A DNA stretch of 31,880 nt, taken from the IMG/VR virus record IMGVR_UViG_3300032257_000078, positions 1 through 31,880 of that record. One strand, given 5' to 3'. The notes under the pieces are model-generated. The model was not told the origin of the DNA and ran no database searches. It worked only from the letters and a program-made list of their open reading frames with translations. This DNA is from a virus. Lineage: Duplodnaviria; Caudoviricetes. The position numbers and the translations under genes are program-made. Positions 2,384-19,077 of this stretch are shown here, piece after piece (position 1 is the stretch's first letter; each line of letters begins with the position of its first letter).

Positions 2384-2385
2384 GG

Positions 2386-2593: not shown

Positions 2594-2971
2594 TCAGCCC
2601 TCGGTGCCCGCCGACTCGCCATCGGCGTCGGGCTTGCGCGTGCCCTTGGGCTTGAACCCAGGCAGCTTGTGGACGTACACCACGCGGCGCGGCGTCTTGC
2701 CGTCGTCGCCCGGGGCGTCGTTGCCGTGCGTGGTGAGCGACACCATCAGGTGGCACTGCTTCTCCTCGCGCTCGCTGTAGGGGAAGCCGTTCTCGAGTGC
2801 GCGGCGCGCGGCGTTGCTGTAGCCGATCGCCTCGTCCGCGTCGGCGCAGACCACCTCGACGCTGCGGTTGACCGGGATGTTGCGGATGTTGTCCACCAGC
2901 GGCTTCATGTCCGCGGACACGGTGCGGCGGGTGAGGACGTCCTTGGTCTCGACGACGTTCAGGTCGGGCAT
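2594..2971 (-). CDS. Hypothetical protein
   Basis: ORF track; GC3-rich codons; starts 1 nt after upstream stop. Confidence 0.8.
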   Translation of the reverse strand: MPDLNVVETKDVLTRRTVSADMKPLVDNIRNIPVNRSVEVVCADADEAIGYSNAARRALENGFPYSEREEKQCHLMVSLTTHGNDAPGDDGKTPRRVVYVHKLPGFKPKGTRKPDADGESAGTEG

Positions 2972-2972
2972 A

Positions 2973-4233: not shown

Positions 4234-4244
4234 GGGCTACAGCA

Positions 4245-5252
4245 TCAGAACGGGAGGTGCGCGAGGTCTTCTCCGGGGTCCGCGTTCCACCCCGGCCCGT
4301 CGTCGGCATCGGCGCCGTCATAGGCATCACCGCCGCCCTCGCCGTGCCCCGGGTTGCCGCAGTAGCCCTCCACCGGCTCACCGCTCACCAGCTTGTTGAT
4401 GCGCTCGGCCCACTCGTTCGTCCACCACCCACTGATGTGGTCGCGGTCGCGCTCTCCGGCGCCACAGCCCTTGTCCTTGCACTTGAAGTCGGGGGCCTTC
4501 GGGTTGCGCTTCTCTCGCCGGTTGTCCCAGCAGGGTCCGCCGCAAGCCGGGCAGAGTGCGTGCTCGGTGCACGGCCAGGCGCTGCTGCAGCCCTCTCCGG
4601 GGCAAGGCTGGCCCACGGGGATGCCATGGAACACCGTGCCGGGTGCGGTGGCAGGGATGGCAGGGGTGGCCACCTGAGCGTCGACCCGCGGCGGGGCCTG
4701 CGCAGGCGCAGGTCGGGCTGGCTGAGGCGGGCGGTCAACAGCAGGCTGCCGTGGGGCCGTTCCGAGGGTCGGCGGGACCCAGTGCATCGGCCCCGCGGGG
4801 CCCTTGTGGTACTTGGACCCCGCGGGGCCTCTGCCGGCCACGAGATCAACCCACGTCGTGCCGAGCTTGTATAGCTCGCGACCGAGTCCCCATTGCACGG
4901 CGGCGCGCTTCATCGCACCGGACCAGGCGCCCTTCATGGCCTCGATGTCGCTGCAATCGCAAACGTCGTACTTCCAGACCCACTCGAGGATGCCGTCCGA
5001 CTCACCGACGCACACGCCGATGCCGACCTTGTACCCGGTTGATTGCCCCGCCTTGGTCTCGGTGCCCGAGTTCTGCCAACCCTGCGGGCCGAACGCGGCA
5101 TCAAAGCGGTCCATGACCGTGCGCGCCGTGGGGTAGCACAACACCATCGCGCTGTTGCGGTCGGGGAACGCCTGCTGGATGCGCCACTCAACCTCGTCGT
5201 CGGTGAGCGGGGCCGAGATCAGCGCAAGCCCGCCCTGGAAATCGAGTGTCAT
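4245..5252 (-). CDS. sak: Rad52/Rad22-family (Sak-like) single-strand annealing protein with C-terminal Cys/PDF module and acidic LPF tail
   Basis: APLTDDEVEWRI, YPTARTVMDRFDAAFGPQGW, WVWKYD, EAMKGAWSGAMKRAAVQWGLGRELY signatures; ATGA-coupled start. Confidence 0.9.
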   Translation of the reverse strand: MTLDFQGGLALISAPLTDDEVEWRIQQAFPDRNSAMVLCYPTARTVMDRFDAAFGPQGWQNSGTETKAGQSTGYKVGIGVCVGESDGILEWVWKYDVCDCSDIEAMKGAWSGAMKRAAVQWGLGRELYKLGTTWVDLVAGRGPAGSKYHKGPAGPMHWVPPTLGTAPRQPAVDRPPQPARPAPAQAPPRVDAQVATPAIPATAPGTVFHGIPVGQPCPGEGCSSAWPCTEHALCPACGGPCWDNRREKRNPKAPDFKCKDKGCGAGERDRDHISGWWTNEWAERINKLVSGEPVEGYCGNPGHGEGGGDAYDGADADDGPGWNADPGEDLAHLPF

Positions 5253-6166
5253 GCCTTGCTCCCTTCGTGTGCCTGCCAAAACGGGCAGGCGAAGTTGACG
5301 TTGCACCAGTCGCGACACCGCACTGGGTCGGCCGGCCTCTCCTCGACACGCATCTGCGCGCCGTCCTTGTGGGCCGCGATGTAGCTCTCGGCCTCGATGA
5401 GCGTGTCGCACAACTTGGTGGCGCGCTTGTTCTTGCCCTTCATCACGGCGAAGGTGGCGGGCTTCTCCCAGCGCTGCTCTGGCGGGCACTCGGCTGGGCC
5501 GCCATCCGCCCAACTGCCTGAGTCCCCGTCAGCGTTGCCAAGTGCCTCGCGCTCGGCGATCTGGCGCTCGACCCACGCGACCTGATCGTCGTCCGGCCAG
5601 CACTCCACCCGGATGAGCTGCCAGGCGCACTGCGGGTAGCCCGGGTCGCGCGCAGCCTCGGCCTTGGACCAGTCGCTGATGATCGCCTCGATCGCCAGGT
5701 CGTAGCACTCGGCGCCGGTCTCCATGCGGATCAGCATGGCGTACTCGTTGAGCTGCTGCTCCCACTCGTCGATGGCGCCGGGCTCGCCGGCCATGATCTT
5801 CTTGACCTTGTATGCCTTGCAGACCTTGTAGTCGCGCACGACCGGCGGCAGGGCGTAGTCCACGGCTCCGCTCACCGTGACACCAGCGATGACGGCCGAG
5901 AAGCGCTGCTCGATCAGAGCGCCGTCGCTGTGCTCGACGCCAGCCAGGGCTCCGTGCACGGCGTTGCCGATGAAGCTCGGCACGGAATCGGAGACGTCGC
6001 GCACGATATCCTGGTGGTGCTTGCGCTGGAGATAGCTCATCCAGGCCGGCTTGATGAGGTCGGTTGCGCTATAGTCCGCGCCGCCCTTGCTGTAGGCCCT
6101 CTCGAAGCCGGCCATCGCCGCGACCACTGCCGCGCTGATGCCGTGAAGGTTCGTGACGGTCGACAT
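5249..6166 (-). CDS. PD-(D/E)XK exonuclease, Cas4/RecB-like recombination nuclease
   Basis: YSATDLIKP, GNAVH, SGAVD, DYK, QLNEY, C-terminal RCRDWC...CPFW; coupled to annealase; start MSTVTN. Confidence 0.88.
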   Translation of the reverse strand: MSTVTNLHGISAAVVAAMAGFERAYSKGGADYSATDLIKPAWMSYLQRKHHQDIVRDVSDSVPSFIGNAVHGALAGVEHSDGALIEQRFSAVIAGVTVSGAVDYALPPVVRDYKVCKAYKVKKIMAGEPGAIDEWEQQLNEYAMLIRMETGAECYDLAIEAIISDWSKAEAARDPGYPQCAWQLIRVECWPDDDQVAWVERQIAEREALGNADGDSGSWADGGPAECPPEQRWEKPATFAVMKGKNKRATKLCDTLIEAESYIAAHKDGAQMRVEERPADPVRCRDWCNVNFACPFWQAHEGSKA

Positions 6167-6288
6167 CAGGAGGCCATCCACGCACGGCGGAATCCGCTGG
6201 GCAGCCTGCTGCGCAGAGCCGCCGACACGGCGTACCCGCCGCGCGTTGCGCCCCAGCGAAGGGCCTTTGTCTCGATCTTGCGTTGCAT
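6166..6288 (-). CDS. 40-aa basic peptide (MQRKIETKALRW...)
   Basis: GGAG SD; TGATG coupling to exonuclease. Confidence 0.55.
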   Translation of the reverse strand: MQRKIETKALRWGATRGGYAVSAALRSRLPSGFRRAWMAS

Positions 6289-6450
6289 GGCTCGCTCCAG
6301 AGTATGCATTGGGTTGGTTGATGGTGAGTTTAAGCGTGCATGACCGCGGCTCGGTGCTGCCATAGGAGCCCACCGTGAAATAAGCCCCTCCCCGGGCGGC
6401 AGTCCAACCGCAACAGAAGTCCTGCCATCCTCGGCGCTCGCGCGCCGCAG

Positions 6451-6975
6451 TCATGCACTAGATTCGGTTTCGCGCGCCAGCTTCCCGGCGCTGTTCCTCA
6501 GAAGGTAGGACCACGCCAGCCAGGCGTGCCAGTAACTGCACTCGTGGTCAGCTGCGAACCGCAGCATCTCGACTGAGTCGATGACCACGTCCTGCATCCG
6601 CGAGGCGTCCCAGGTGATGGTGTACCCCGGTCGCCCGAGCCCGATGGCCTTCATCGCGGCGGCCAACCCGTAGATCCTGTCGGGCTCGAGTCCGAGCCGC
6701 CTGGCCGTGCCTCGCACGTAGGTAGGGACAGCGTGGAAGGGTGAGACGCAGAGCGATGGGCTGGGCAGGCCGAGGATGCCCTGGCAGAGCGGCCTGAGCC
6801 TCATCTTGATCGGGCAGGGCGAGCCAGCGGCCCGGGCGTGCCAGTCGAGCACGACGACCGGCCTGGCCCTGACCCACCGGCCATCCGAGGAGAACCGGGG
6901 GCCCTTGTGGTCGCTCGTCCCGAGCCAGTTCAAGCAGCCTGTGGCCGGGTCGTGTTGCGTTCTGAGCTGCGCCAT
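6451..6975 (-). CDS. Degenerate HNH (HNH_3-like) domain protein with C-terminal extension
   Basis: GCLNWLG...RARPVV...LC...LCVSPFH parallels GCWxWxG...RAHRV...HxC..CVNPxHL; own promoter and SD. Confidence 0.65.
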   Translation of the reverse strand: MAQLRTQHDPATGCLNWLGTSDHKGPRFSSDGRWVRARPVVVLDWHARAAGSPCPIKMRLRPLCQGILGLPSPSLCVSPFHAVPTYVRGTARRLGLEPDRIYGLAAAMKAIGLGRPGYTITWDASRMQDVVIDSVEMLRFAADHECSYWHAWLAWSYLLRNSAGKLARETESSA

Positions 6976-6982
6976 GGGCGCC

Positions 6983-6995
6983 CTCCGTTGCGGTT
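6983..6995 (-). repeat. Leader motif copy AACCGCAACGGAG
   Basis: Match to the motif at 10.66-12.07 kb; contains the SD of the HNH-like gene. Confidence 0.85.
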
Positions 6996-7001
6996 CTGAG
7001 C

Positions 7002-7037
7002 ATGCTACCCGAAGCTGTGGCCATGGTCAATGGCCAC
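7002..7037 (-). promoter_or_regulatory. Sigma70-type promoter TTGACC-N17-TAGCAT with operator-like inverted repeat GTGGCCAT-N5-ATGGCCAC over the -35
   Basis: -35 at 7030-7025, -10 at 7007-7002, 17-nt spacer; repeat arms 7017-7024 and 7030-7037. Confidence 0.75.
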
Positions 7038-7067
7038 TCTCTCGCGTGCGCGTGTCGCGTGTGCGCG

Positions 7068-7532
7068 TCAATCCATGAACGGGCCGGCGGCCACGTCTGC
7101 GAGGATGGCGCGTTGATCCCCGGCGATAACTGCCAGGCTGACCCAGACCGTGATTTGAGCAAGCTCCCCGCCGAGGGATTCCGCGACGACCCACACGAGG
7201 AGTGCGTCGCTTTGTGTGGAAGCTGCCTCGTCTGGCGCTCCGAGGCTGTCGATGAGAGTTTGCAGGGCAGCGCTTGATTGGACGCGGTCCCCGGTTCCTG
7301 TCGCAGCCGTAGCCCTGAGGTGCAGGTGCGATGCGGTGTCCCGGGCGATGGCGTCGCACGCAAACCGTCGCATACTGTCGTCCCAGATCCCGCCGGCGAG
7401 CGCGCCAACCGCGCCGCCCCAGATGCTGTCCGTCTCGAGCAGCGAGCGCTCGAAGTCCCTGCGCCAAGCGTGGTCGCGAGCGAGCCAGATGGTGCCGGGC
7501 ATGAAGTGCGCGTCAATCATCGGAGTGTGCAT
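7068..7532 (-). CDS. Hypothetical protein
   Basis: TAATG coupling; RRFACD and QRAILAD segments look phage-like. Confidence 0.65.
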   Translation of the reverse strand: MHTPMIDAHFMPGTIWLARDHAWRRDFERSLLETDSIWGGAVGALAGGIWDDSMRRFACDAIARDTASHLHLRATAATGTGDRVQSSAALQTLIDSLGAPDEAASTQSDALLVWVVAESLGGELAQITVWVSLAVIAGDQRAILADVAAGPFMD

Positions 7533-7780
7533 TAGAACGGCTTCTCGTATTCGGGATCATAGTGTCCGTGCGAGCACACGCTACACGGGTCGTCGAACGG
7601 TCGCTCGTCCTCATCCCACTGCGCGCACTCCCAGCAGATGCCGAGCGTCTCCGCCAAGTCGCGCGCGGCATCCTCCACGGTAACCTCCTCGGGCTCGCCG
7701 ACTCGCCACTTTCCGCACGTCAGGTATCTCACGGCGTGCACCAGCGCGGCGGCTTCGATGAGCAGCTCCGGGTCGTTCAT
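7532..7780 (-). CDS. Acidic Zn-finger protein (CWEC...CSVC) ending in EKPF
   Basis: ATGA-coupled start MNDPELL. Confidence 0.75.
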   Translation of the reverse strand: MNDPELLIEAAALVHAVRYLTCGKWRVGEPEEVTVEDAARDLAETLGICWECAQWDEDERPFDDPCSVCSHGHYDPEYEKPF

Positions 7781-8004
7781 GGCGCGAAGTCCAGGCCGGT
7801 GTCCCCGTCGCCGGTGCGCTCCTCGCACCTCGGGCACCACGCCATGACGGGGTCAGCCTCGAAGTCAACCGACATCAGGCGGCCATCGAGAGCGCGGAAC
7901 CATGCGGGATATGCGACCTGAACATCGGGCGAGCCGCACTTATCGCACACCGCGTCGGTGGGGATGATTGGCGCCATCGGCGCCGTGTCTTCCTCAAGTG
8001 TCAT
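7777..8004 (-). CDS. Zn-ribbon protein (CDKCGS...WCPRC)
   Basis: ATGA-coupled start; two CxxC pairs. Confidence 0.75.
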   Translation of the reverse strand: MTLEEDTAPMAPIIPTDAVCDKCGSPDVQVAYPAWFRALDGRLMSVDFEADPVMAWCPRCEERTGDGDTGLDFAP

Positions 8005-8321
8005 GCCTGCCCCATTCTGCGGATGGCTGCCGCTGCCGCATCTGCGTCGCCGTTGGCTTTCTTCAATGCGTCCCGGCACGTTCTGATCGAGGCCTCGGTC
8101 GACGCCCGAAGAGTCGTGACAGCTTCGTGGGTAGGGTTGCGCGCCACGCATCCGGGGGGCAGTTCCATCTCGCGCCAAGCAGACGAGCCGCAGCGCCTCC
8201 AGACCGAGCCGTCGTCGCAAAGCACGACGACCACCCCGCCTGGCGCGTGGTCGATCTGCACCACTTTCCGATGCGTCGTCATTCCCCGCCCTCGCCCAGC
8301 GTCGTCGGCTGGGGCGGTCAT
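8001..8321 (-). CDS. Small phage protein with C-terminal EF-Ts N-terminal (UBA-like) domain
   Basis: N-domain KVVQI...VLCDDGSVW; C-domain VTTLRASTEASIRTCRDALKKANGD; start 8321 (ATGA) or 8282. Confidence 0.75.
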   Translation of the reverse strand: MTAPADDAGRGRGMTTHRKVVQIDHAPGGVVVVLCDDGSVWRRCGSSAWREMELPPGCVARNPTHEAVTTLRASTEASIRTCRDALKKANGDADAAAAAIRRMGQA

Positions 8322-8536
8322 CGGGCCGCCTCCACCGTCCGCTCGACGACGCGGAGGTCCGGGCCGCCATGGCCATGCCCGGCAGCGTAGTGGCACACCA
8401 CGACACGGGCCCTAGAGAGGGCCTCGGCCTCGGTGCGGTATCCGCGCCCGGGCCGCGTGCCGTGACTGCGGTAGGCCAGGCAGCCCGGCCAGTGGACGCT
8501 TGAGCGGTCGGCCAGGATGTAGTCGGTGGTGGTCAT
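8318..8536 (-). CDS. Hypothetical protein
   Basis: MTTTDYILAD; ATGA overlaps. Confidence 0.65.
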   Translation of the reverse strand: MTTTDYILADRSSVHWPGCLAYRSHGTRPGRGYRTEAEALSRARVVVCHYAAGHGHGGPDLRVVERTVEAAR

Positions 8537-8621
8537 CGGTTCGTCCATTTCGGTCTCTCTCGCCCCACCTCGCGGTGGGTGCGGTGGGGCTGGTGTGCGA
8601 GTCTGCGGGCCAGGGTCTGCC

Positions 8622-8873
8622 TCACGTTGTCTCGGCTTGCATGGCCTTCAGCAGGTCGACGATATCGCACTCCCGCGACAACGGCAGGAATGCGTTGGCA
8701 CCGCAGCAAGTGGAACGCCACGACAGCACTTCGCGCTCGTTGCCCAGTTCCTCTCGCAATCTGTCGTATGCCTCGGTCACGATATGACTGTCGCACTTGT
8801 CCCACCGTCGACCACTGGCGTACAGACGCTCAGCAACCATCCGATTAGTAACATTCTTTCGCTTTGTGGTCAT
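8622..8873 (-). CDS. Hypothetical protein
   Basis: ATGA-coupled start MTTKRKNV. Confidence 0.7.
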   Translation of the reverse strand: MTTKRKNVTNRMVAERLYASGRRWDKCDSHIVTEAYDRLREELGNEREVLSWRSTCCGANAFLPLSRECDIVDLLKAMQAETT

Positions 8874-9046
8874 CGCCGCACCCCGCACTCGGTTAGCAGG
8901 TAGCGCAGGCTCCCAAGGAAGCCCGCCATAAGGAGGCCGGCGCCGACGACAGCCACGGCGAGGTCGCCAGCGTGCCCGAATACCATCGCCGCTCCAAGGA
9001 GCACCATGGCGCCGCAGCAGGACGAGCCGATCATGTGGCGCTTCAT
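8870..9046 (-). CDS. Small two-TM membrane protein
   Basis: Two hydrophobic stretches (GAMVLLGAAMVFG; LAVAVVGAGLLMAGFLG); ATGA coupling. Confidence 0.65.
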   Translation of the reverse strand: MKRHMIGSSCCGAMVLLGAAMVFGHAGDLAVAVVGAGLLMAGFLGSLRYLLTECGVRR

Positions 9047-9564
9047 GCCCGCCATCGCACGATCGCCGACCGGACGCCGGTCCCGTTGAACGTCCCGGAC
9101 GGCAGCCGCTCCAGCCACTCAAAGTCCGCGAGGGCCTTTGCCTGGCGCGGCCCGTCGGCGCAGATCGCCACCAGCAGGCCGCCAGGGCGGGGGAAGCGCT
9201 GAGCGTGCTGGATGTGCCGCACGTCCGCGCCACCGTTGAACGGAGGGTTCATGATGACCCGGTCATACCGGGAGGCTGGCGTCACCGCCAGGAAGTCCAG
9301 CGGGCTAAAGCCTCGCGCCATGGCCAGCGCCTGGTCATGCTCGAACGCGGTCATGTTGACGCGCCACTCGCGCTCGACAGCGTCGACAAGCGCGCCCGTT
9401 CCTGCGCTGGGCTCCAGCACCATCGCGCCAGGGAACAGGTCCAGCGCCGCTACCATCCGGTCAGCGACAGCCCTCGGTGTCGGGTACAGCGTCGGCGCAA
9501 CCGCGATCTGCACCCCGGCCTTTAGCGCGGCTCGCATTGCTGCGACCTCTGGTGGGTCTGTCAT
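9043..9564 (-). CDS. SAM-dependent N6-adenine-type DNA methyltransferase domain (compact)
   Basis: YPTP, VLEPSAGTGAL (motif I), DFL, MNPPF (motif IV), GGLLVAI, GTF..TGV. Confidence 0.9.
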   Translation of the reverse strand: MTDPPEVAAMRAALKAGVQIAVAPTLYPTPRAVADRMVAALDLFPGAMVLEPSAGTGALVDAVEREWRVNMTAFEHDQALAMARGFSPLDFLAVTPASRYDRVIMNPPFNGGADVRHIQHAQRFPRPGGLLVAICADGPRQAKALADFEWLERLPSGTFNGTGVRSAIVRWRA

Positions 9565-10649
9565 CCTTCCGGCCTCCCGTGATCCTTGCTGTCGGTCAAG
9601 TACACCGCCGAAATGGTCAGCCCCTTGTCGTCACGGTGCATCGCAGTCCGCACTCGGTGCGAGCCGTCCAGAGACAGCGATGTGCCCTTGCTGTCCTTGC
9701 TCTTGCGCGCATACTCGGCTTTCGTCATGTCGATCTGCCCGTAGGTCATCGTCTCGCCCCGGTGGTAGCGGTTCTGAGTCACGACCTGCCCGCACTCGCC
9801 ACGGTAGTTCAGGAGCGGCGGCTGCTTCCGCCGTGGCTTCGGCTTGAGCATGTCCAGCCCGCCCTGATCGCCGAGCAACGCTCGCTCGTACGTGATCCTC
9901 CGGTCAAGGTGCGCAATGAAGCGCTGGCACCCGGCCTCGATGCTGGCCAGCAGGCGTTGAGGGACCCACGAACCGCCCCGGCCATCGCTGCACCAGACGT
10001 GCGGCTGAGGCTCGCAACGGATGCACGTCGCTTCGCGCCCGTGCTCCTTCCAGCAGCCGACGATAGGCCGTTGCACAATCGGCGGCGTGTCGTCGTGCGT
10101 GTACCGGCGCACCTGGCGCCGTCGGTCGGCTTCCAGTTTCTTGATGCGCCTAGCGCGGACTTCCGGCCGTTGCTTGTACTTGGCCGACGACAGCACGCCA
10201 GCAGCGCGGGCCGTCCAATACTCGGACGTATCCCACATACGGACGGCTCGGCGCATTCCTTTCTCGATCCGCTCGGCATCCTTCCGCGCCTTCCGCTCGC
10301 TGTGATGGCCTACCAGGATCGGCTGGCCAAGCGGGATGCCGTCGGCGATCTTTGAAACAGCGTTGGCTTCCCGGTGATAGTCCGCTTTCCGCTTGTCGCT
10401 GTAGCCAGCGAATCGATCGGCTCGGTCCTCTGCGCGGTCGACCAGCGAGGCATCCTCGTCGCGGATATCGCCGCACCACTCCAGCAAGAGGTCTTCGGCC
10501 GTCGGCGACCACGCCGGGCAGACGAACAGTTCTTGCTTGGGGGCCCATCGAAACCCGGCGCCGCGGGCGCGTTCGTAGTCTTCCGACGACAGTCGGCCAT
10601 CTGCGTACAAACGCAGTTTGTTGTCGTCGGGACTGTAGGTGGCATGCAT
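9561..10649 (-). CDS. DUF3560-domain protein
   Basis: ATYSPDDNKLRLY, GFRWAPKQELF, RAEDRADRF, GIPLGQPILVGHHSERKARKD, RARRIKKLEA; ATG 10649 after leader motif. Confidence 0.9.
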   Translation of the reverse strand: MHATYSPDDNKLRLYADGRLSSEDYERARGAGFRWAPKQELFVCPAWSPTAEDLLLEWCGDIRDEDASLVDRAEDRADRFAGYSDKRKADYHREANAVSKIADGIPLGQPILVGHHSERKARKDAERIEKGMRRAVRMWDTSEYWTARAAGVLSSAKYKQRPEVRARRIKKLEADRRRQVRRYTHDDTPPIVQRPIVGCWKEHGREATCIRCEPQPHVWCSDGRGGSWVPQRLLASIEAGCQRFIAHLDRRITYERALLGDQGGLDMLKPKPRRKQPPLLNYRGECGQVVTQNRYHRGETMTYGQIDMTKAEYARKSKDSKGTSLSLDGSHRVRTAMHRDDKGLTISAVYLTDSKDHGRPEG

Positions 10650-10657
10650 AGCGTGAT

Positions 10658-10673
10658 CCTTCCGTTGCGGTTG
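10658..10673 (-). repeat. Leader motif copy CAACCGCAACGGAAGG
   Basis: Lies between -10 box and DUF3560 start. Confidence 0.85.
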
Positions 10674-10680
10674 TGCGTGC

Positions 10681-10718
10681 ACTATACAGTATCGGTGCGC
10701 GGCGTGCTAAACTTTAGC
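10681..10718 (-). promoter_or_regulatory. Promoter with -10 TATAGT and palindrome GCTAAA-C-TTTAGC over the -35 region
   Basis: TATAGT at 10686-10681; AT-rich intergenic stretch; repeat 10706-10718. Confidence 0.65.
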
Positions 10719-10743
10719 GCGAAACATTTCCCCATTGCCCAGC

Positions 10744-10920
10744 CTAGGACACGCATCGCCGTACCTCGGCGACAAGCCGTCGCCGGTAGTCCTCGCGCAG
10801 ATCGGCCAGCTCCCCCCGCGGGGCACGGATGCCAAACTTCTCCCGTATGGCGTCTCGGATGTCGCGAAGGGCTTGCGCGTATTCGTAGCGCGCCCACTGC
10901 GATGGTGTGGCGGTTGTCAT
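10744..10920 (-). CDS. 58-aa helical protein (MTTATPSQWARYEYAQ...), absent from ORF track
   Basis: Translated by hand; leader motif plus GGAG SD. Confidence 0.75.
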   Translation of the reverse strand: MTTATPSQWARYEYAQALRDIRDAIREKFGIRAPRGELADLREDYRRRLVAEVRRCVS

Positions 10921-10925
10921 GTGTT

Positions 10926-10998
10926 ACTCCGTTGCGGTTGCGTGAGCCTACGCGCGCTGGCGCTCCCAGTATGCTGAGCGCCAGCTGGTGAGGGCTCA
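10926..10998 (-). repeat. Duplicated hairpin-plus-leader module, copy 1
   Basis: GAGCCCTCACCAGCTGGCGC...GCG.AGGCTYACGCAACCGCAACGGAGTA shared with 12056-12104. Confidence 0.9.
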
Positions 10999-11202
10999 GC
11001 GAGGTGTCAAGGTGTCAGCCGGCACCGTGACAATCGATCCAGCGGTGCGGGCTTCGGCGAAGAGCGGGGCGTCGGGCTTCGCCTTGGTCCAGCGGTCCAC
11101 CGTCACGATGGCATCCTTCCGACGATGGGACGGGCCGATGCGACCGAGCCCTGCGATCAGGTGATTGTCTCGTGGGGTCCAGAGGAACGTGGGGCGGGTC
11201 AT
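10996..11202 (-). CDS. Hypothetical protein
   Basis: ATGA-coupled MTRPTFLW; preceded by variant CCCCAACGGAAAG. Confidence 0.7.
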   Translation of the reverse strand: MTRPTFLWTPRDNHLIAGLGRIGPSHRRKDAIVTVDRWTKAKPDAPLFAEARTAGSIVTVPADTLTPR

Positions 11203-11405
11203 GAGTCCGGGCTTTCCGTTGGGGTGGGTCGGGGCCCCCAGTCGTCGTCGTCGGGTTCGGCGATGTCGTAACCAGCCCGCCGGCACAGGTCGGCGATATC
11301 GCTGGCGGTTTGGCTATCCCATTCGGTGCCAGACATCAAGTTTACGATTGCCTCTAGGGCGTCGGCGTTGCTAAGCGCTGGAGCTTCGTGCGGGTGGCGA
11401 GCCAT
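11199..11405 (-). CDS. Small acidic phage protein (MSGTEWDSQT type)
   Basis: GGAGG SD after the (AACCGC)4 array. Confidence 0.8.
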   Translation of the reverse strand: MARHPHEAPALSNADALEAIVNLMSGTEWDSQTASDIADLCRRAGYDIAEPDDDDWGPRPTPTESPDS

Positions 11406-11422
11406 GGGTCAGACCTCCGTAG

Positions 11423-11449
11423 GTTGCGGTTGCGGTTGCGGTTGCGGTT
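11423..11449 (-). repeat. Tandem hexamer array (AACCGC)4-AAC
   Basis: Direct count; occupies the gap between upstream TAA and the SD. Confidence 0.97.
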
Positions 11450-11604
11450 TACCAGTTTGGCGCGTGGCCGCCGGATGCGAGCCAGCTCAACAAGTCCTCG
11501 GTGGCTTGCGCCAGCTCGATAGCCTGCGCGGACTCTTCGTCCTGACGATCCAGGACGGCATCCAGAAGACAGCGGACGTCGTCCAGCGTTGCGTTGGGGT
11601 CCAT
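11449..11604 (-). CDS. 51-aa MDPNATL...WLxxGG-type small phage protein, absent from ORF track
   Basis: Translated by hand; GAGG SD; TGATG coupling; recognisable motif. Confidence 0.85.
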   Translation of the reverse strand: MDPNATLDDVRCLLDAVLDRQDEESAQAIELAQATEDLLSWLASGGHAPNW

Positions 11605-11756
11605 CAATCGCTGACCTCGATGCCTTCGGCTTCCGCGCAGTCATAGCAGAAGCGCTCGATCTCGGGGAAGCCGACGAGGACCTCAACCGTCGTATGAATG
11701 AGCGCCACCTCGCTCGGCGCTTCCAAGCACCTATCGCACATATGGAGGGTATGCAT
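11604..11756 (-). CDS. 50-aa Zn-finger protein (CDRC...CYDC), absent from ORF track
   Basis: Translated by hand; follows (AACCGC)7-AACGGAAG leader. Confidence 0.8.
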   Translation of the reverse strand: MHTLHMCDRCLEAPSEVALIHTTVEVLVGFPEIERFCYDCAEAEGIEVSD

Positions 11757-11767
11757 GTGTTACTTCC

Positions 11768-11812
11768 GTTGCGGTTGCGGTTGCGGTTGCGGTTGCGGTT
11801 GCGGTTGCGGTT
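11768..11812 (-). repeat. Tandem hexamer array (AACCGC)7-AAC
   Basis: Direct count; fills gap between TGA 11814 and GGAAG. Confidence 0.97.
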
Positions 11813-11813
11813 A

Positions 11814-12047
11814 TCAGTACCCCTCGCCATCGGTGAGTGCGATGAAGGGGCGCCAGTCGTCGGGTCGACGCTCGCGCCGCTGTTGCATTCTTACGGATCT
11901 TGCCATCGCCGATCGGTTCGACCACTCTCCCACGATGACATCGAAGTCCATGGGATTCCCTGAAGCCCTCTTCGTCGCCGATCGGTCGGGATTGCGGATG
12001 GCGGCGACATCATGGGACTGTGCGCCGGTTATGCGGTATGTCTTCAT
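11814..12047 (-). CDS. Hypothetical protein, first gene of the early cassette run
   Basis: Leader motif plus GGAG SD; ORF track. Confidence 0.75.
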   Translation of the reverse strand: MKTYRITGAQSHDVAAIRNPDRSATKRASGNPMDFDVIVGEWSNRSAMARSVRMQQRRERRPDDWRPFIALTDGEGY

Positions 12048-12055
12048 TGCGGCTG

Positions 12056-12104
12056 TACTCCGTTGCGGTTGCGTAAGCCTTCGCGCGCCAGCTGGTGAGG
12101 GCTC
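12056..12104 (-). repeat. Duplicated hairpin-plus-leader module, copy 2
   Basis: See copy 1; lacks a ~24-nt internal segment. Confidence 0.9.
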
Positions 12105-12107
12105 GGG

Positions 12108-12230
12108 TTACCAGTTCGGTGCGTGACCACCAGATGCGGTTGCGCGCTGCGATCGCTGCCCGCCTCAAAGGGCTGGACATGCGAGCGGTCACCAACATGG
12201 CGAGGGCCTCATCGCTGCGCACACTGGTAA
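12108..12230 (-). ncRNA. Candidate structured RNA (~125 nt, nested junctions)
   Basis: Nested helices found by hand, with G-U pairs only in the minus orientation; directly downstream of a -10 box. Confidence 0.55.
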
Positions 12231-12242
12231 GCGGCGCCACGC

Positions 12243-12290
12243 ACCATACCGAAGGAACAAAATACAGAAATAATAAGCTACACTTGTAGC
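12243..12290 (-). promoter_or_regulatory. AT-rich promoter region, -10 TATGGT, upstream palindrome GCTACA-CT-TGTAGC
   Basis: Most AT-rich stretch seen; -35 is poor; repeat 12277-12290. Confidence 0.55.
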
Positions 12291-12700
12291 GATGCACGCA
12301 CGAGCCTGGTCACGCTCAACCGACCCACGCGGTCCGGTGACGTGGGCGCGAGTAGCACTACAGGTGTGGCGCTCGGTCTTCAGCTACGGGTGTGGCTGGT
12401 AGGAGGACTGGTCCCACTCACCCCCGGGCCCCCGGGGAGGGAGGGGGTGCTGAGCACCTGGCAGGGAGAAGTCCCCACTACTCTCCCCTCGCCACCAGCC
12501 GCAGCATGGCCACAGCGCGCTGGCCTGGCTGCTCGAGCTGCGCTGCTCCGGACTCCGGCGACTGGCGTCCCCTCCGCCGGTACTTCATTGATGGCTGGGT
12601 GCCGGGCCTTGGGCGGCCCAGTGCTGGGGCCTGCCGGCCGGGATGTTCGTCGGCTGCGCGCAGAGCGCTCCGCCGCCGGGTGCGATTGTTGGACAGAGCG

Positions 12701-12729
12701 ATTGTCCAGCCGTCAGGCGGATCTGTCAA
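12701..12729 (-). promoter_or_regulatory. Near-consensus sigma70 promoter TTGACA-N17-GACAAT
   Basis: Perfect -35 at 12729-12724, 17-nt spacer, -10 at 12706-12701. Confidence 0.75.
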
Positions 12730-12803
12730 GGACGAGAGTGAGACGCCACACTCTGACGTAAATGCAGCGTCTCACTGGGGTTGCGTCGTGACTGCAGGTG
12801 TAG

Positions 12804-13043
12804 TCAGTCTGATAATCCGGGCGGACGTTCGGGGTCTGACCTGGGCGCGAGGTACGGGAAGGTGTACCTGGCTGGGCCGTCGTCCTCAGGCTCGTGTCGT
12901 GTGACCCGGGGCTCCGCAAACCCCGTCTCCCCGGCCCACCAGGAGGTCGGCATGCGCACCACACCCAGGTCGTCGGTGCTCAGTGCGATCAAGTCGGAGT
13001 CGCAGATGGGACAGGGCCAGTGCGTGCAGGCGTGCTCAGTCAT
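12804..13043 (-). CDS. Hypothetical protein with CPIC
   Basis: ATGA-coupled MTEHAC. Confidence 0.55.
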   Translation of the reverse strand: MTEHACTHWPCPICDSDLIALSTDDLGVVRMPTSWWAGETGFAEPRVTRHEPEDDGPARYTFPYLAPRSDPERPPGLSD

Positions 13044-13234
13044 CGGAGCATCCACCCGGGCCATGCAGTGGGCCCTCGGAAATCCATGCGGAGCAACGGG
13101 GTGTCGCACGGGTCAAGGGATGCGATGGCATCCTCGATGCTTACGTCCCACGCGACTGCCAGTGGCTCCCAGGCGCCATCGATCCACTCGTATGGACGCT
13201 GCTGAGAGGTGTCGTAGTAATAGCACGTTGTCAC
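13040..13234 (-). CDS. Hypothetical protein
   Basis: GTGA-coupled to RuvC-like gene; GAGGT SD. Confidence 0.55.
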   Translation of the reverse strand: MTTCYYYDTSQQRPYEWIDGAWEPLAVAWDVSIEDAIASLDPCDTPLLRMDFRGPTAWPGWMLR

Positions 13235-13713
13235 AGCAAGCACCTCGCCAGCATCAGTGATGCCGTGTGCAGCGCGTCGGCCTCGTTGTCGTCGATGTTG
13301 GCCGTTGCGCCAAGGTCCGGCCAGCGGATGCTTGCGGCCCGACACATGGCGCCTTTGTTCGCCTGGCCCTTGCCCGTGGCGTGCGACTTGATCTCGCCGA
13401 CGCCGAGCGCGCAGTAGGTGATGTCCAGGCTGTCGAAGATCTCGAGCATGTGCGCCTTGAACCCGCCGTAGGTGTGCCCTGCTGCGACGCTGAGTGGGCG
13501 CTGCTTGACGTCTTCGTAGCCGAACGAGATGTCGCCGTAGGCCGCCAGCAGCTCACTGAGGTTGCGGCGGAAGATGATGAAGCGCATGCCAGGGCTGGAC
13601 CCTGCCGACGGCTTGCAGTTCCACGCCCCGCTGGCGCTCCTCGAGCCGTCCTCGTTGAGCACGGCCCACCCGGTGCGCGTGCCCAAGTCGAGTCCCCCGA
13701 ACTTGCGGCTCAT
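13231..13713 (-). CDS. ruvC: RuvC-like Holliday junction resolvase
   Basis: GLDLGTRTGWA, YEDV, IKSHATGKGQANK, DDNEADAL acidic catalytic set. Confidence 0.9.
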   Translation of the reverse strand: MSRKFGGLDLGTRTGWAVLNEDGSRSASGAWNCKPSAGSSPGMRFIIFRRNLSELLAAYGDISFGYEDVKQRPLSVAAGHTYGGFKAHMLEIFDSLDITYCALGVGEIKSHATGKGQANKGAMCRAASIRWPDLGATANIDDNEADALHTASLMLARCLL

Positions 13714-13961
13714 CGCTTCAGCCTCCGCTCGAGTTGGTCCGCCGCCTCGTTCAGAGACGCTCTATGCGCGTTGACGCTGTCGGCGCCGCACCGACATGCC
13801 CGCTCTCCGACGCTCTCCGCGTAATCTACGCTGAAGTGGTTTTCACTCATCGGGCATGAGTAAAACCCGTCATCGCACTCGAGGTGATGTTCTTCCGGTA
13901 TGCGCCTGATGAGCCCGATGAGCCTGTGGCACTCCGCGACCAACTGCCTGTCATGGGTCAT
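13710..13961 (-). CDS. Cys/His-rich hypothetical protein (HLECDD..YSCP...CRCGAD)
   Basis: ATGA-coupled; GGAGG SD. Confidence 0.75.
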   Translation of the reverse strand: MTHDRQLVAECHRLIGLIRRIPEEHHLECDDGFYSCPMSENHFSVDYAESVGERACRCGADSVNAHRASLNEAADQLERRLKR

Positions 13962-14188
13962 GGCCGCCGCCTCCGCGGGATGATCTCGACGCCGGCGCTG
14001 TAGCTGCCCATGCACATGGCTTGGCCGCGACCGCCGATGACTACGGATCGTTCGGCCTTGAACAACGTCTCGTCCGGCATCTCGTCGCTCCCGCCGGACA
14101 TGACGGCGAGGGCCAGCCAGCGCGGCACGTCGTCGCGGACGTGGTCGGAGTACATGATGTTGTAGCAGAGCCCGGGGAGCGTCATCAT
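13958..14188 (-). CDS. Hypothetical protein
   Basis: ATGA overlaps at both ends. Confidence 0.6.
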   Translation of the reverse strand: MMTLPGLCYNIMYSDHVRDDVPRWLALAVMSGGSDEMPDETLFKAERSVVIGGRGQAMCMGSYSAGVEIIPRRRRP

Positions 14189-14580
14189 CGGCTGTCCCCG
14201 CTTCCGCCCAACACGCCACGCTCGTCACGATCACGCAGCTTGTCGATGTTGCGCTGCGCGACATCCGACAGCGTGACATTCAACTCTGACGCGCACGCAG
14301 CGACGTACCAGAGAACGTCACCCAGCTCGTCGATGAGCTTGAGGCGGGACTCCGGCGTCTCTTCTCCGCAGCCGTCGCGTATCAGTTTCTTGACCTTGCC
14401 GGCGTACTCACCCGCCTCTCCGGCGAGCCCGAGAGCGGAGTAAGACACGCGCAACAGCGCAGACATGTCCTCGTCAGGCTCGAAGGTCGTCGCATCGAAG
14501 GCAATGTCGTCGCACGCCTTGATGTACCTGTGCGCCGTCTTGCGCGCCGCCAACTGGTACTCGTTGAACCTGTCCATCAC
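14185..14580 (-). CDS. mazG: MazG-like nucleotide pyrophosphohydrolase
   Basis: FNEYQ..A..TA, LGLAGEAGE, KVKKLIRD, DELGDVLWY, NIDKL..R..RGVLGGSGD. Confidence 0.93.
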   Translation of the reverse strand: MMDRFNEYQLAARKTAHRYIKACDDIAFDATTFEPDEDMSALLRVSYSALGLAGEAGEYAGKVKKLIRDGCGEETPESRLKLIDELGDVLWYVAACASELNVTLSDVAQRNIDKLRDRDERGVLGGSGDSR

Positions 14581-15017
14581 TTCACCAACTCGGCGATCTC
14601 GTGGATGGCGCTCTGCTCTGGCGCGAAGATATCGCGTGCGTTACGAGGCCCGTCGATGATGATGTCTAAAAGGCCCATCATAGCGATGAAGCACGTGACT
14701 GCCGCAGCGACGTACCACGCAGTGGGGTCTGGGGCGTCGCTAGGCGAGAAGTAAGGGCCCGACTCTCTACCGGCCTTGATGGCTTTCGCGCGCTCGACCT
14801 CCACCAACCTGGCTGCGCATATGAATCTGTACGACGCGGCAGCCACGACGACCCCTACTACGGTGGACACCGCGAGTGACCCGATGGCCTCGATGCGGAT
14901 TCCGGCGACGTGCGCGTCCCAGACGCGCGGGGCTGCTGCGATGATGTGCTCCTCGATCCGGCCGACGCCGTCCGCCAGTGCGTTGACTGCTACCTGTACT
15001 GCGTCTGCGTTCTGCAT
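14577..15017 (-). CDS. Two-TM membrane protein
   Basis: APRVW motif, two hydrophobic helices, C-terminal FAPE; GGAG SD before ATG 15017. Confidence 0.75.
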   Translation of the reverse strand: MQNADAVQVAVNALADGVGRIEEHIIAAAPRVWDAHVAGIRIEAIGSLAVSTVVGVVVAAASYRFICAARLVEVERAKAIKAGRESGPYFSPSDAPDPTAWYVAAAVTCFIAMMGLLDIIIDGPRNARDIFAPEQSAIHEIAELVK

Positions 15018-15046
15018 GACTCGCTCCATATGGGAAATGTGCACGC

Positions 15047-15116
15047 ACCATCGGCGCGCACCGCGTGGCGGTCAAGCAGAATCGAAAGAACTTTGCAACC
15101 CGCCTTCTGGTAGCAT
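15047..15116. promoter_or_regulatory. Divergent promoter pair: leftward TTGACC-N17-GATGGT; rightward extended -10 TGG-TAGCAT
   Basis: Boxes at 15075-15070, 15052-15047 and 15108-15116; located at the strand switch. Confidence 0.6.
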
Positions 15117-15122
15117 CCCGGC

Positions 15123-15353
15123 ATGGGCGAAGACCCCGACTTCATCACCGGGCTGCTGCAGGGCGTTCAAACGATCGGCGGCTACACCGGGATCCCGGCT
15201 CTGGCTGCCGTGGCGGCCATCGCCCTGAAACTCCGCGGGGGGAGCCGGGCGGAGCCGAAGGTCGCCCGCCTGGAGCGACGCGTCGCCAGGCTGGAGGGCT
15301 GGCTCATGGCCCTTGGCCTCGAGCGTCTCCTGGAGGACCGCGATGAGTCGTAA
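15123..15353 (+). CDS. Small membrane protein with TM and coiled tail (holin-like candidate)
   Basis: GIPALAAVAAIALKL TM; adjacent to spanin-like gene; holin role is positional inference. Confidence 0.6.
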   Translation: MGEDPDFITGLLQGVQTIGGYTGIPALAAVAAIALKLRGGSRAEPKVARLERRVARLEGWLMALGLERLLEDRDES

Positions 15354-15723
15354 CCTGTTGCTGCTACTGGGTTTGTGCGGGTGCGGGGTGTCGTCCGCGT
15401 TCGACCGAACAGCCACCCCGACGACCGTGTTCATCGACCGCGGGGCCCCAGTCCCTCACGCCTTGGCCGACGGGACCGTCCTGGTCCTGCCGGGAGCCGA
15501 GGTGGTCGAGGTGGTTCAGCAGCAGGCCGGGCTCGAGACCGAGCGGATCACCGACGGGGCGGACTGGCTGCCGGGGGCCCTGGCTTCCCTCGCATTCCTC
15601 GCCCTCGCCGGCGCCTGGTGGTGGCACCGAAGCCGGACATCAGATGTCCCGGACGACGATGGCCCTCTGCCGCAGGTCCCTGCGCCGCGGCGTCAGAAGG
15701 GCCCGCGCACCGCAGAGAAGTAA
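15343..15723 (+). CDS. Lipoprotein with C-terminal TM; unimolecular spanin candidate
   Basis: GGAGG SD; MSRNLLLLLGLCG-C signal; C-terminal WLPGALASLAFLALAGAWWW followed by HRSR. Confidence 0.6.
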   Translation: MSRNLLLLLGLCGCGVSSAFDRTATPTTVFIDRGAPVPHALADGTVLVLPGAEVVEVVQQQAGLETERITDGADWLPGALASLAFLALAGAWWWHRSRTSDVPDDDGPLPQVPAPRRQKGPRTAEK

Positions 15724-15901
15724 GCAGACCCTGCACCCCGCGCGATTGCGAGATACAGGGTCTGTGGCGGTTGTCCAGGTGCGGGAGCGAGCCGTGGACG
15801 CGCGTAAGTCTATGCCTTGAACCGGCCTGCGTTCAAGTGGAGAATCCCTGGCAACCCGGCGAACGGCCGGATCCCACACACCAGCATCACGGAGCCAGAC
15901 A

Positions 15902-16327
15902 ATGGCCGTCTCCGGACCCGCTTCGTACAAGCACCAGATCATCACCGCCCACCTCGACGCGATCAGCAACTCCGCGACGAGCGCCTACCTTGTGGGCAGC
16001 GCCACCGGCGGCCCGACCCTGCCTGGCGGCCAGGGCGGACGGTTGCACAAGCTGTCCGCTGACGGCAACGTCGGCACCGCGGAAGCCTCGACCGACGTGG
16101 TCATCACGGTCTACAAGGGCGCCATGAACGCCGCGAACGAGGCCCTCGTGGTGACGCTCGACCTGGACTCCAGCGGGGACGTCCAGGGCACCAGCACGAC
16201 CGTCGTCGACAGCGGCATGGACGTCTTCGGGGCCAGCGACGAGCTGGTCATCCGGGCCACCAGCTCGGGCACGACCTACGCGCTGGCCGACCTCAACATC
16301 GCCCTCGAGTTCGCCGTCGCCTACTAG
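15902..16327 (+). CDS. Beta-rich putative virion protein (decoration-like)
   Basis: GGAG SD; S/T/G/A-rich; strong codon bias like the MCP gene. Confidence 0.75.
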   Translation: MAVSGPASYKHQIITAHLDAISNSATSAYLVGSATGGPTLPGGQGGRLHKLSADGNVGTAEASTDVVITVYKGAMNAANEALVVTLDLDSSGDVQGTSTTVVDSGMDVFGASDELVIRATSSGTTYALADLNIALEFAVAY

Positions 16328-16632
16328 TCGGCGGGGATGTTGGGGATGTCGTTGGCCGGGGCCAAGGCGGCAGCGCCGCGGGGCTCGAGCGGGGGAAGCT
16401 CCTCCAGCTCGCCCTCCGCCGGCATCCCCTCGTTCATGAAGACGGCCGGCGCCGTCCCGCTGGCGGACTTGGGTCTGATCGACAGCTTGACCGTCGTCGT
16501 CGGGCCGAGCGCCGTCGGCATCTCGAACGAAACCCCGCACTCACGGCACCGCAGCGAGAGGGCGACTTGCATGAGCCGATCGCCGCGACCAACCTCGGTG
16601 TAGGTGTCGATGACCTTGTGAGCACACTTCAT
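16324..16632 (-). CDS. Counter-oriented Zn-binding protein (CAH...CREC) with acidic Pro-rich tail
   Basis: Fills the gap exactly; GC3-rich codons on - strand. Confidence 0.65.
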   Translation of the reverse strand: MKCAHKVIDTYTEVGRGDRLMQVALSLRCRECGVSFEMPTALGPTTTVKLSIRPKSASGTAPAVFMNEGMPAEGELEELPPLEPRGAAALAPANDIPNIPAD

Positions 16633-17341
16633 GGCAGACCCCGGTGAGATAAGCGTCCCTGACGTGGTGGCGCCAAACTCCGCCGCCTCTCAGCTGCTGG
16701 CGCTGCAGAACGCCCTGCGCACCGCTGGCGACGTTGGCACCGGGGACATCATCCCGGAAGATGTGCGCAAGGTCCAGCCCGGCGCGGTCTACAGCAGCTA
16801 CGACGATGAGCTGATCGAGCGCGTGGTGTACGCCTTGGTGCACGCCGAGCTGGAGGCTGAGGAGTCCGGCGAGGCCGGCCTGACGTTCAGGAGCACCGAG
16901 AAGGCGCTGGAGGAGTGCGGCGTCCCGTTCGCGCAGTTCGTGCAGATGTCGGGCACGGACAGGTTCAAGAAGGCTCACCGCCGGGTCGCCCGCACGTTCT
17001 TCGTGGACCTGCGGTACGGGCGCATGATGAAGGCCGCCAGCAACGCGGCCATGAACGGCGACCAGCGGGCGCTGAAGATGGTGCTCGACGGCGACGAGGA
17101 GGAGACCGACGCAGTCAAGGCCAAGCTCGAGGAGGTCGAGGTCGGCGGCGAGCGGGCTTTCTACGCCACGGTGAACGAGTTGCGTGAGCGCCTCCGGCGG
17201 CTGACCGACCGGGTCGAGGTTCGCCAGGCCACCGATGAGCAGGTAGGGGCTGCTCGAGGCACTGCGTCAGAGCGCGAGTCTGAGGAGCGTGCGGTGGCTG
17301 ACGTCGACCACCGAGCCGCGACGCGAGGCGACCCCGGGTGA
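16631..17341 (+). CDS. Putative terminase small subunit
   Basis: Position; GTGA coupling to TerL; helical; no diagnostic motif. Confidence 0.5.
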   Translation: MADPGEISVPDVVAPNSAASQLLALQNALRTAGDVGTGDIIPEDVRKVQPGAVYSSYDDELIERVVYALVHAELEAEESGEAGLTFRSTEKALEECGVPFAQFVQMSGTDRFKKAHRRVARTFFVDLRYGRMMKAASNAAMNGDQRALKMVLDGDEEETDAVKAKLEEVEVGGERAFYATVNELRERLRRLTDRVEVRQATDEQVGAARGTASERESEERAVADVDHRAATRGDPG

Positions 17342-19077
17342 CCCAGACAGTTCAGCAGATTCGCGAGTTGGTCGAGTTGGAAGGCCTTGTGTCCGGGCTC
17401 GAGTCGATCAGCGCCAAGGACTGGATGCGCATCGACTACAGCCGCTACCTCTACGGCGGGTGGAAGCACCCCGATGGCCGGTGGATCGAGCGCGGCCACG
17501 TCAAGGCTCAGGCGTTCCACGAAGCGTGCAAGCAGTTCATGTGCCCGAAGTGCTGGGCTGTGATCGGCTACATGGGCACCTCGATGGACAACATCCTGCA
17601 CTGCAGGTCGTGTGACCTGGACGTCCCGCTGGTCGGGCCGGACGGCATCGCCGCTGGCGTCTACGACCTGTTGTTCATCAGCGGCGGAAACCAGAGCAGC
17701 AAGAGCTTCACGGGTATCACCGAGTTCTGCTCGTGGATCGAAGGTAGCCGGCCATGGGATGGGTCGCTGACCTGCACCGTCGATGAGCCCGGGCTCTGGC
17801 TGCTCTGCGGGCCAACCCACACCACGCACTTCCCGGACACGCTGAGCCCGTACTTTGAGGAGCGCCTGGCGCACCGGATCAAGCGCAGGCACAAGGACGC
17901 CAACGGGTCGATCAAGCGGTACGACCTGGACAACGGCGACCAAGTCGTGTGCGTGAGCTACGAGCAGTTCTTGCGCGCCGGCAAGCAGAGCACGGCGGCT
18001 GTCGAAGGCCCTCGCTACAAGGGCGCGTTCCTCGACGAGCCGCCGCCCGAGGGCATGTTCACAGGCATCATCCGCGGGCTGATGAAGTGGAAGGCGATGG
18101 GCTGGGGGCGGTGCATCATCGCGGCGACCGCACTGCACCACGAGTACCTGTTCAACCGCATCAAGGGGCAGAGCTGGAACGTCGGTGGCCCGAAGCGCAG
18201 CTACTTCAGCATCGAGTTCACCTACGAAGACAACCCATTCCTTGACGATCGCTCGCGCCGTTCACTTGAGGACGCCTGCTCGCCGGAGGAGCGCGAGGTC
18301 CGCCTGTTCGGCCGCAGCCGCTCGCTGAGTGGCCGTGTCTACTCGGCCTTCTCGCCCGAGACGCACACCTACAGCCAGCAGGAGTTCGACCCGCTCGTCG
18401 ACGAGAATGGTGATCCCAGCGACTGGCCGGTGACCATGGCGTGCGACCCGCACGACGTGCGCCCGTTCGCGATGTCGTGGTGCGCGACGGCTCCCAACGG
18501 CGACAAGTTCTACTTCGCCAACTGGCCGGAAGAGCACTACCAGGACATGCGTCGGTCCACGCTTTCGTTCACGGACTACGCCGACATCATCAGGGAGATC
18601 GAGGAGCGCATCCCCGGCGGCCCAGACCGCGTCACCGAGCGCTTCCTTGACCCGAAGTTCGGGCGCACCAAGAAGGCCGGCATGGTGGTCGAGTCGGTGG
18701 AGGCAGCGTTCGACGATCTCGGCCTGTACTTCACCACGGACTTCAACCCCGATGTCGCCACCGGGCACGCCGTTGTCCGCGAGGGGCTGCGCATTGACAC
18801 GACCCGCCCGGTCGACGCCATCAACCGGCCGAAGATCTGGGTCAGTCGTGACTGCCAGAACATCATCTGGTCGCTGATGAACTACACGCGCAAGCCCGAC
18901 GCCGACCCGTCCGCTGCGCCGAGCGCGCAGGTTCAGGACGCTGGCAAGGACTTCTGCGACACAGTACGCTTCATCGAGGTGGCCAGCGTTGGCTACCAGT
19001 CCTGGACGGCCAGGCCGGCACGCACACATCAACGCTTCGCGGCACGCAAGTCGTGGGGCTCATTCTGGGGCAAGTGA
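17338..19077 (+). CDS. terL: Terminase large subunit
   Basis: Walker A-like GGNQSSKS, Walker B AFLDEPP, coupling motif AAT, DNPFL, RNase-H-like ACDPH, FLDP, KDFCDTVRF. Confidence 0.95.
   Translation: MTQTVQQIRELVELEGLVSGLESISAKDWMRIDYSRYLYGGWKHPDGRWIERGHVKAQAFHEACKQFMCPKCWAVIGYMGTSMDNILHCRSCDLDVPLVGPDGIAAGVYDLLFISGGNQSSKSFTGITEFCSWIEGSRPWDGSLTCTVDEPGLWLLCGPTHTTHFPDTLSPYFEERLAHRIKRRHKDANGSIKRYDLDNGDQVVCVSYEQFLRAGKQSTAAVEGPRYKGAFLDEPPPEGMFTGIIRGLMKWKAMGWGRCIIAATALHHEYLFNRIKGQSWNVGGPKRSYFSIEFTYEDNPFLDDRSRRSLEDACSPEEREVRLFGRSRSLSGRVYSAFSPETHTYSQQEFDPLVDENGDPSDWPVTMACDPHDVRPFAMSWCATAPNGDKFYFANWPEEHYQDMRRSTLSFTDYADIIREIEERIPGGPDRVTERFLDPKFGRTKKAGMVVESVEAAFDDLGLYFTTDFNPDVATGHAVVREGLRIDTTRPVDAINRPKIWVSRDCQNIIWSLMNYTRKPDADPSAAPSAQVQDAGKDFCDTVRFIEVASVGYQSWTARPARTHQRFAARKSWGSFWGK

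Follow-up and report, generated by a model that had tools for sequence, protein, structure and literature searches.

The window analysed here, that is, the whole 31,880-nt stretch of DNA, is a linear virus record from a microbial-mat metagenome according to the run listing, and the subject is the gene-poor region ahead of its leftward (minus-strand) gene block. An earlier note had drawn an RNA of about 125 nt in this region (12108-12236), which was thought to head the early operon and to display a repeated leader motif. A structured, non-coding minus-strand element that heads the early operon beside the leader motif is upheld by the present analysis, whereas the fold and the boundaries given to it are not. 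The flagged stretch is probably a composite, in which an 81-nt predicted three-way fold has been joined to a gene leftover by a deletion. The features of the region are collected in Table 1.

Table 1. Positions of the features discussed in the text, numbered along the window.
Feature	Position	Strand	Remark
Predicted three-way junction, 81 nt	12142..12222	-	Supported core of the finding
Gene remnant, last 9 codons and stop	12108..12137	-	Second copy of a small phrog_865-like gene
Single leader-motif unit AACCGCA	12135..12141	-	Likely deletion breakpoint; CGCA common to both sides
Complete phrog_865-like small gene of about 52 aa; the remnant is its paralogue	11449..11607	-	PHROG E 3.3e-10; 8 relatives
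Intergenic module, ends in motif and Shine-Dalgarno	12058..12104	-	Shorter copy of 10927-10997
Overlapping 95-codon ORF, not a conserved gene	12010..12297	-	Frameshifted in X3
(AACCGC)n sites	11771-11812, 11426-11449, 12070, 10939, 10672, 6995	-	
Blocks UAUUU.G.UCCUUCGGU and CGCUU.CC, 14-nt spacer of equal length	12226..12264	-	Common to G002
Most conserved leader part, G/C-run blocks	12405..12500		Blocks common to G002
Sigma-70-type promoter TTGACA-17-GACAAT	12701..12729	-	10/12 consensus matches; kept in G002
Small genes, DUF3560 protein, methyltransferase, exonuclease, Erf-like protein	below 12.05 kb	-	
RuvC-like and MazG-like genes	13-15 kb	-	
Structural genes (terminase, major head protein)	from ~16.6 kb	+	

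The major head protein (window 22639-23595) is recorded as an identical copy on a 41,159-nt contig, and the window is thus only part of a larger genome. In this linear fragment, operator-like palindromes are present, and a scan of the ORFs revealed no repressor. An imperfect 12-bp palindrome occurs in three places (12278-12289, 12358-12369, and 12792-12803; four matches against 0.69 expected) and once at the matching place (22687) in G002, a distantly related phage described below. It is operator-like, without an identified cognate regulator.

The complementary segments of the earlier model, their places, and the lack of a family match hold, whereas the drawn fold, its closing helix in context, and folding beyond chance do not. 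All six minus-strand helices are complementary where they had been placed, with 42 pairs, none invalid and three of them G-U, and the end of the model lies 4 nt short of the duplicated module, which starts at 12104. Folding is also better for the minus strand than for the plus strand. The absence of any likeness to tRNA, 5S, SAM-I, or hammerhead RNA is confirmed by Rfam 15, which includes these families as well as GOLLD and ROOL and gives no match in the window at the gathering threshold. Weak miRNA-like matches at E 0.23 or worse are the only ones, ARAGORN gives none, and in G002 no Rfam match is found at E up to 5.

The drawn multi-junction fold has an energy of -47.3 kcal/mol against -56.5 kcal/mol for the minimum free energy (MFE) structure, which places it 9 kcal/mol above the optimum with a probability of 1.8e-8. 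In the isolated 129-mer, the pair probabilities average 0.99 in the long arm and reach 0.89 in the closing helix, and those of the other four helices are at most 0.002. The 8-bp closing helix falls to a probability of 0.004 or 0.0 in longer context, and 20 of the 42 pairs depend on 12108-12134, which belong to a coding remnant. The mini-hairpin that was said to display the motif has a probability of 0.001, and the motif is predicted to be mostly unpaired (0.14-0.23; 129-mer and full leader). The 129 nt do not fold clearly beyond chance (z -1.50), with 12 of 200 shuffles and 41 of 454 GC-matched 129-nt windows folding as well. The hexamer TATGGT does occupy 12248-12243 and overlaps the conserved blocks at 12226-12264. 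However, this proposed -10 is not conserved in G002, whereas the promoter at 12729-12701 is.

The supported structure is a locally stable predicted three-way junction that differs from the drawn fold. It has an 11-bp closing stem with an internal loop, a first arm with an internal loop, and a second arm with two single-A bulges. The MFE structure is identical to the centroid, and the segment reaches z -2.44, with 2 of 200 shuffles as good, for boundaries that were picked after the fold was seen. The plus strand of the same segment gives z -0.49, and 4 of 350 GC-matched windows fold as well as the junction. Its four G-U pairs favour the minus strand (-41.0 vs -32.7 kcal/mol). In the full leader, the junction keeps pair probabilities of 0.82-0.99; when transcription is assumed to start at 12236, the junction core is broken by the downstream module (0.14). 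Model searches find no second copy of the junction in the window or in G002. The junction is based on two diverged sequences and one close contig, and matches no Rfam family.

The diverged sequence is that of G002, a 45-kb phage found by capsid-protein alignment (70% identical), in which the conserved promoter, the flanking blocks, and the same predicted topology all recur. In its collinear non-coding region, the promoter region matches that of the window at 74% (E 5e-5), and other blocks are common to both. The syntenic segment at 22531-22616 folds unaided into the same three-way topology (z -2.16), with an internal loop in the closing stem and another in arm 1, and with two single-A bulges in arm 2. 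A fold as close to that of the junction is reached by only 3 of 1500 shuffles and by 25 of 5690 windows of G002. In a sequence-only alignment, 10 pairs in register hold in 20/20 cells, with one double and two single changes; slid controls hold in 20-60%, and a shuffle control is uninformative for two rows. Hand registers match 18 of the 31 window pairs, among which 12 are the same, three are changed on one side, three are changed on both, and none is broken, the other 13 being unmatched. The double changes include arm 1, and three of the four G-U pairs are standard pairs at the matched G002 positions.

Little sequence is kept between the two phages in the loops and arms. In G002, the two strands of the segment fold equally well, and the probability of the closing stem ranges from 0.06 to 0.58 with the context. 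In a blind search with a covariance model built on the window only, the G002 site ranks 39th of 49 matches (E 7.9). RNAalifold on the plain two-row alignment recovers the closing stem and misses the arms, a result that is not informative with two rows. A match in G003 obtained with the two-sequence model was weak, at 14.4 bits with 3 of 10 pairs broken, and was rejected. Searches of viral contigs (by protein and by pattern), genome contigs, annotated phages, and plasmids gave no closer relatives. A metagenome scan returned 100 loci, one of them the window's own contig and 99 sharing only an 18-mer, and none of 45 viral loci from a motif scan was related by tblastn of 12 early ORFs.

In both phages, a short repeat of their own stands directly 3' of the junction and also follows downstream stop codons. 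The G002 repeat is GCAGGACA, found directly after the junction and after the stop of the first gene, and AACCGCAAC is absent from the whole of G002. Past the junction, G002 has about 230 more non-coding bases with several hairpins (L150:700-900, minus strand), and its leader holds three copies of CUUGCGAG.

The close relative X3 is represented by one 444-nt contig with a depth of 4.9 and 20 letters past the joint, both values below the caution limits. The contig matches 12135-12560 and then continues with 20 letters of the hexamer repeat (AACCGC)n; 12047-12134 is covered by no X2 or X3 contig, a gap to which no weight is given. None of the nine X3 changes in the junction lies in the closing 24 nt (p 0.034), and the mean pairing probability at the changed sites is 0.46 vs 0.75 (p 0.028), with four of the nine strictly unpaired (p 0.125). 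Two terminal pairs are broken and one loop-closing pair is lost, and both deletions within the junction fall in hairpin loops. The arms change faster than the flank (9 changes in 41 nt vs 17 in 130), and 12209-12274 has no change at all.

The last 30 nt of the flagged stretch are of a different kind. Sequence paralogy with the intact small gene at 11449-11607 shows them to be a coding remnant. A repeat search pairs 12091-12138 with 11432-11479, at the end of the small gene, and the remnant differs from 11449-11478 at five positions over 30 nt, all five of them synonymous third positions, a pattern matched by 61 of 200,000 random draws. It fits the C-terminal GG.xP.W pattern of the phrog_865-like family and has the invariant G, P, and W, which are kept in 9/9 aligned rows. 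The family HMM reaches only the last 9 codons, with E 1.5 and fourth place among 2025 frame segments, which is not significant alone. No start codon lies in the open frame, an MDPN-type N-terminus and the N-terminal two-thirds are absent, and the whole candidate read through with X gives no PHROG family at E up to 10; therefore, only the tail is gene-derived. The possibility that the whole candidate is a frameshifted pseudogene was rejected on the same read-through and on the first 27 residues, which lack the family pattern, and it is also opposed by two single-base X3 deletions there. The remnant thus has the invariant residues of phrog_865 (labelled HNH endonuclease in PHROGs) without being a gene. 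The 52-aa product of the intact gene has no Pfam HNH match, and the PHROGs label looks carried over.

Conservation at the protein level of the ORF at 12010-12297, which the earlier note had named as an argument against an RNA, was not seen. The ORF is broken in X3 by the two single-base deletions that fall in the hairpin loops of the junction, matches no PHROG or Pfam family, and has its best tblastn match in G002 at E 2.7.

The remnant and the junction meet at one copy of the leader motif. In the simplest history, a deletion at the CGCA common to both sides would have taken away the remaining repeat units, a ribosome site, and the greater part of one gene or more. Below 13,500, the minus strand has eight AACCGCA sites or arrays, of which six are followed by GGA(G/A) and a start codon; the site at 12141 is not among these six. 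The intergenic module comes after a stop codon in both of its copies, and the longer copy (10927-10997, minus strand) contains a 10-bp hairpin that is absent from the 12058-12104 copy. Leader positions 12234-12247 can pair on the minus strand with 11455-11472, where the small gene ends (-24.3 kcal/mol, a value equalled by 4 of 2597 windows), and with 12114-12131 in the remnant (-20.7 kcal/mol, equalled by 9 of 2597). This complementarity may be due to chance or may have helped the deletion. The case illustrates how the leftover of a gene cut short by a deletion can look like a closing RNA helix.

Elsewhere on the minus strand, (AACCGC)n is present in 1 to 7 units before the ribosome site of six early genes, and at 10672 and 6995 it begins 6-8 nt past a promoter-like -10. 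The same CAACCGCAAC leader is found in an unrelated 52-kb phage, G001 (L104/L105; 6102, 6434, and 7664, minus strand), where it follows three near-identical sigma-70-type promoters, two with the full ACGGAG. The motif may be a recurring phage translation leader.

The promoter form common to the window and G002 is TTGAC(A/G)-17-GACAAT, and the leader is predicted from this sequence to start near 12694. The conserved promoter lies 479 nt upstream of the junction, which would thus probably form the 3' end of a leader some 560 nt long. The distance from the -10 to the junction end is 559 nt in the window and 598 nt in G002, and that from the -10 to the first ATG is 654 nt and 858 nt, respectively. 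The stretch 12405-12560, the most conserved block of the region, differs at a single one of its 156 nt in X2 and likewise in X3, and comprises G/C runs and short-loop palindromes common to G002; it could be a DNA element (an origin or packaging site) or an RNA core. Its 12405-12500 part holds candidate long-range partners of the 12226-12257 blocks.

The explanation preferred here, tentatively and with a probability of about 0.45, is that the junction is the last domain of an untranslated early leader, roughly 560 nt in length, and serves as a boundary in cis, the remnant having been joined to it by a probable deletion. The junction would fold locally and keep the adjacent repeat and the ribosome-loading stretch open. 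Cleavage would occur in the single-stranded repeat, and the junction would then shield the 3' end of a stable leader RNA. It is unlikely that the region matters only as DNA, as an area of promoter, operators, and an origin or packaging site in which the junction is a near-neutral, GC-rich inherited fold. The palindromic 12-mers, the strongest conservation in primary-sequence blocks outside the junction, the failure of the blind covariance model, and the fast divergence of the arms would all agree with such a role, but the double changes in arm 1 and the topology kept in G002 speak for a folded RNA, as do the G-U pairs that favour the minus strand, three of which are standard pairs in G002, and the indels found only in loops. 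The discrete RNA of about 125 nt, which would run from a -10 at 12248, be closed by the 8-bp helix, and use the motif as a decoy or riboregulator, is very improbable, since the supported fold and bounds differ from those drawn, the motif is predicted to be unpaired, the -10 is not conserved, and the 3' quarter is the remnant. The closing helix does reach 0.89 in the isolated 129-mer, the 5' block of G002 has a partner 27 nt past the junction (-14.8 kcal/mol; 58 of 3997 windows as good), and the X3 contig stops just short of where such a partner would start. However, the closing helix of the candidate is no better than expected by chance (equalled by 472 of 2597 windows) and is lost in context, its 3' strand is coding-derived, no terminator-like site was found at the 3' end of the candidate, and G002 lacks the AACCGCAAC sequence.

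The put RNA of phage HK022 suppresses termination by binding the beta-prime zinc-binding domain. A put-like, factor-independent antiterminator, with two abutting stem-loops that bind RNA polymerase and allow read-through of the ~12-kb early operon, is a doubtful alternative for the junction. The accessible text on HK022 describes putL and putR as two adjacent bulged stem-loops of about 70-80 nt downstream of an early promoter, putR lying about 270 nt from the start (PMC9378689). The junction is similar in size, has two abutting arms and a shape kept in G002, and is likewise preceded by an early promoter where a long operon begins. Both arms are enclosed by a closing stem in both phages (11-bp in the window), and an enclosing stem is not mentioned for put in the accessible text (PMC9378689). 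Moreover, put copies follow both early promoters, whereas the junction is a single copy 479 nt from its promoter despite other promoter-like sites, terminator-like sites are not enriched in 1-17500 (6 found vs 6.7 +/- 2.8 expected), and the loops and arms keep little sequence between the phages. Just as doubtful is a large multi-domain RNA of about 560 nt with long-range helices and a pseudoknot, which would function in its entirety, either in trans or on the transcript as it is being made. In both phages, three segments immediately upstream of the junction do find pairing partners at aligned positions: helix a uses the best-ranked partner in each and shows changes from G-U to A-U, helix b has 9/13 and 12/13 pairs in one register, and helix c has 10 pairs with five double changes by hand register. 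None of 27 X3 changes falls in the 57 nt of these segments (p 0.018, an optimistic value because X3 changes cluster). Against this, an enumeration of shared helices gives 15, compared with 12-36 for 12 column shuffles and 37 for the plus strand, showing no excess, and when the whole transcripts are folded, the probabilities of helices a, b, and c are near 0. In the window, the partner in helix c ranks fourth and requires a 2-nt bulge, and helices a and b join sequence-conserved blocks, so their pairing is inherited and not covarying. The whole leaders fold no better than shuffles (z -0.53 and z -1.78). It is likewise doubtful that an uncatalogued RNA of about 560 nt ending in the junction, with a pseudoknot between 12491-12484 and 12257-12250 and a stack of two long-range helices, would be the first product of infection and would target the RNA polymerase or ribosomes of the host directly, using the phage-specific single-stranded repeat as a handle.

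For the preferred reading of the junction as the end of an early leader, the closest known system is in mycobacteriophages. According to the accessible part of the report, L5 and D29 make a stable non-coding RNA of about 500 nt between Pleft and the first gene, and such long early-leader RNAs can exceed all other transcripts of infection in abundance and can harm the host by their toxicity (PMC5712189). The Pleft RNA of the cluster A phages L5, D29, and StarStuff is described there as non-coding from promoter to first gene, with no conserved ORF, many small indels, and deletions between nearby repeated motifs (PMC5712189), and the window leader is similar in these respects. The window and G002 both have the Pleft-type long, ORF-poor stretch from early promoter to first gene. 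However, blastn of both leaders against 50,697 phage records shows no similarity to the cluster A right end. The Pleft RNA is placed by the same text at a genome end under a repressor and stoperator system (PMC5712189), whereas the window is known as a linear fragment. It is also reported as very abundant, with processed shorter species, whereas the leader RNA of the window is a prediction from its letters. The terminal three-way junction predicted here is not mentioned for the Pleft RNA in the accessible text (PMC5712189). By analogy, the junction may be regarded as placed like the Pleft RNA and shaped loosely like put, while it departs from the former in sequence and from the latter in copy number.

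No description of the junction RNA was found in the literature, and a catalogue of candidate viral RNAs gave no motif match in the three supplementary files searched (PMC10690425). In Rfam and in these files the junction is uncatalogued, whereas a long early-leader RNA as such is already known from L5 and D29 (PMC5712189). The accessible part of that work leaves open how the 3' ends of early-leader RNAs are set (PMC5712189). A compact junction that likely ends the leader in two diverged phages, followed in each by a repeat of its own, would offer a small testable unit for this 3'-end question.
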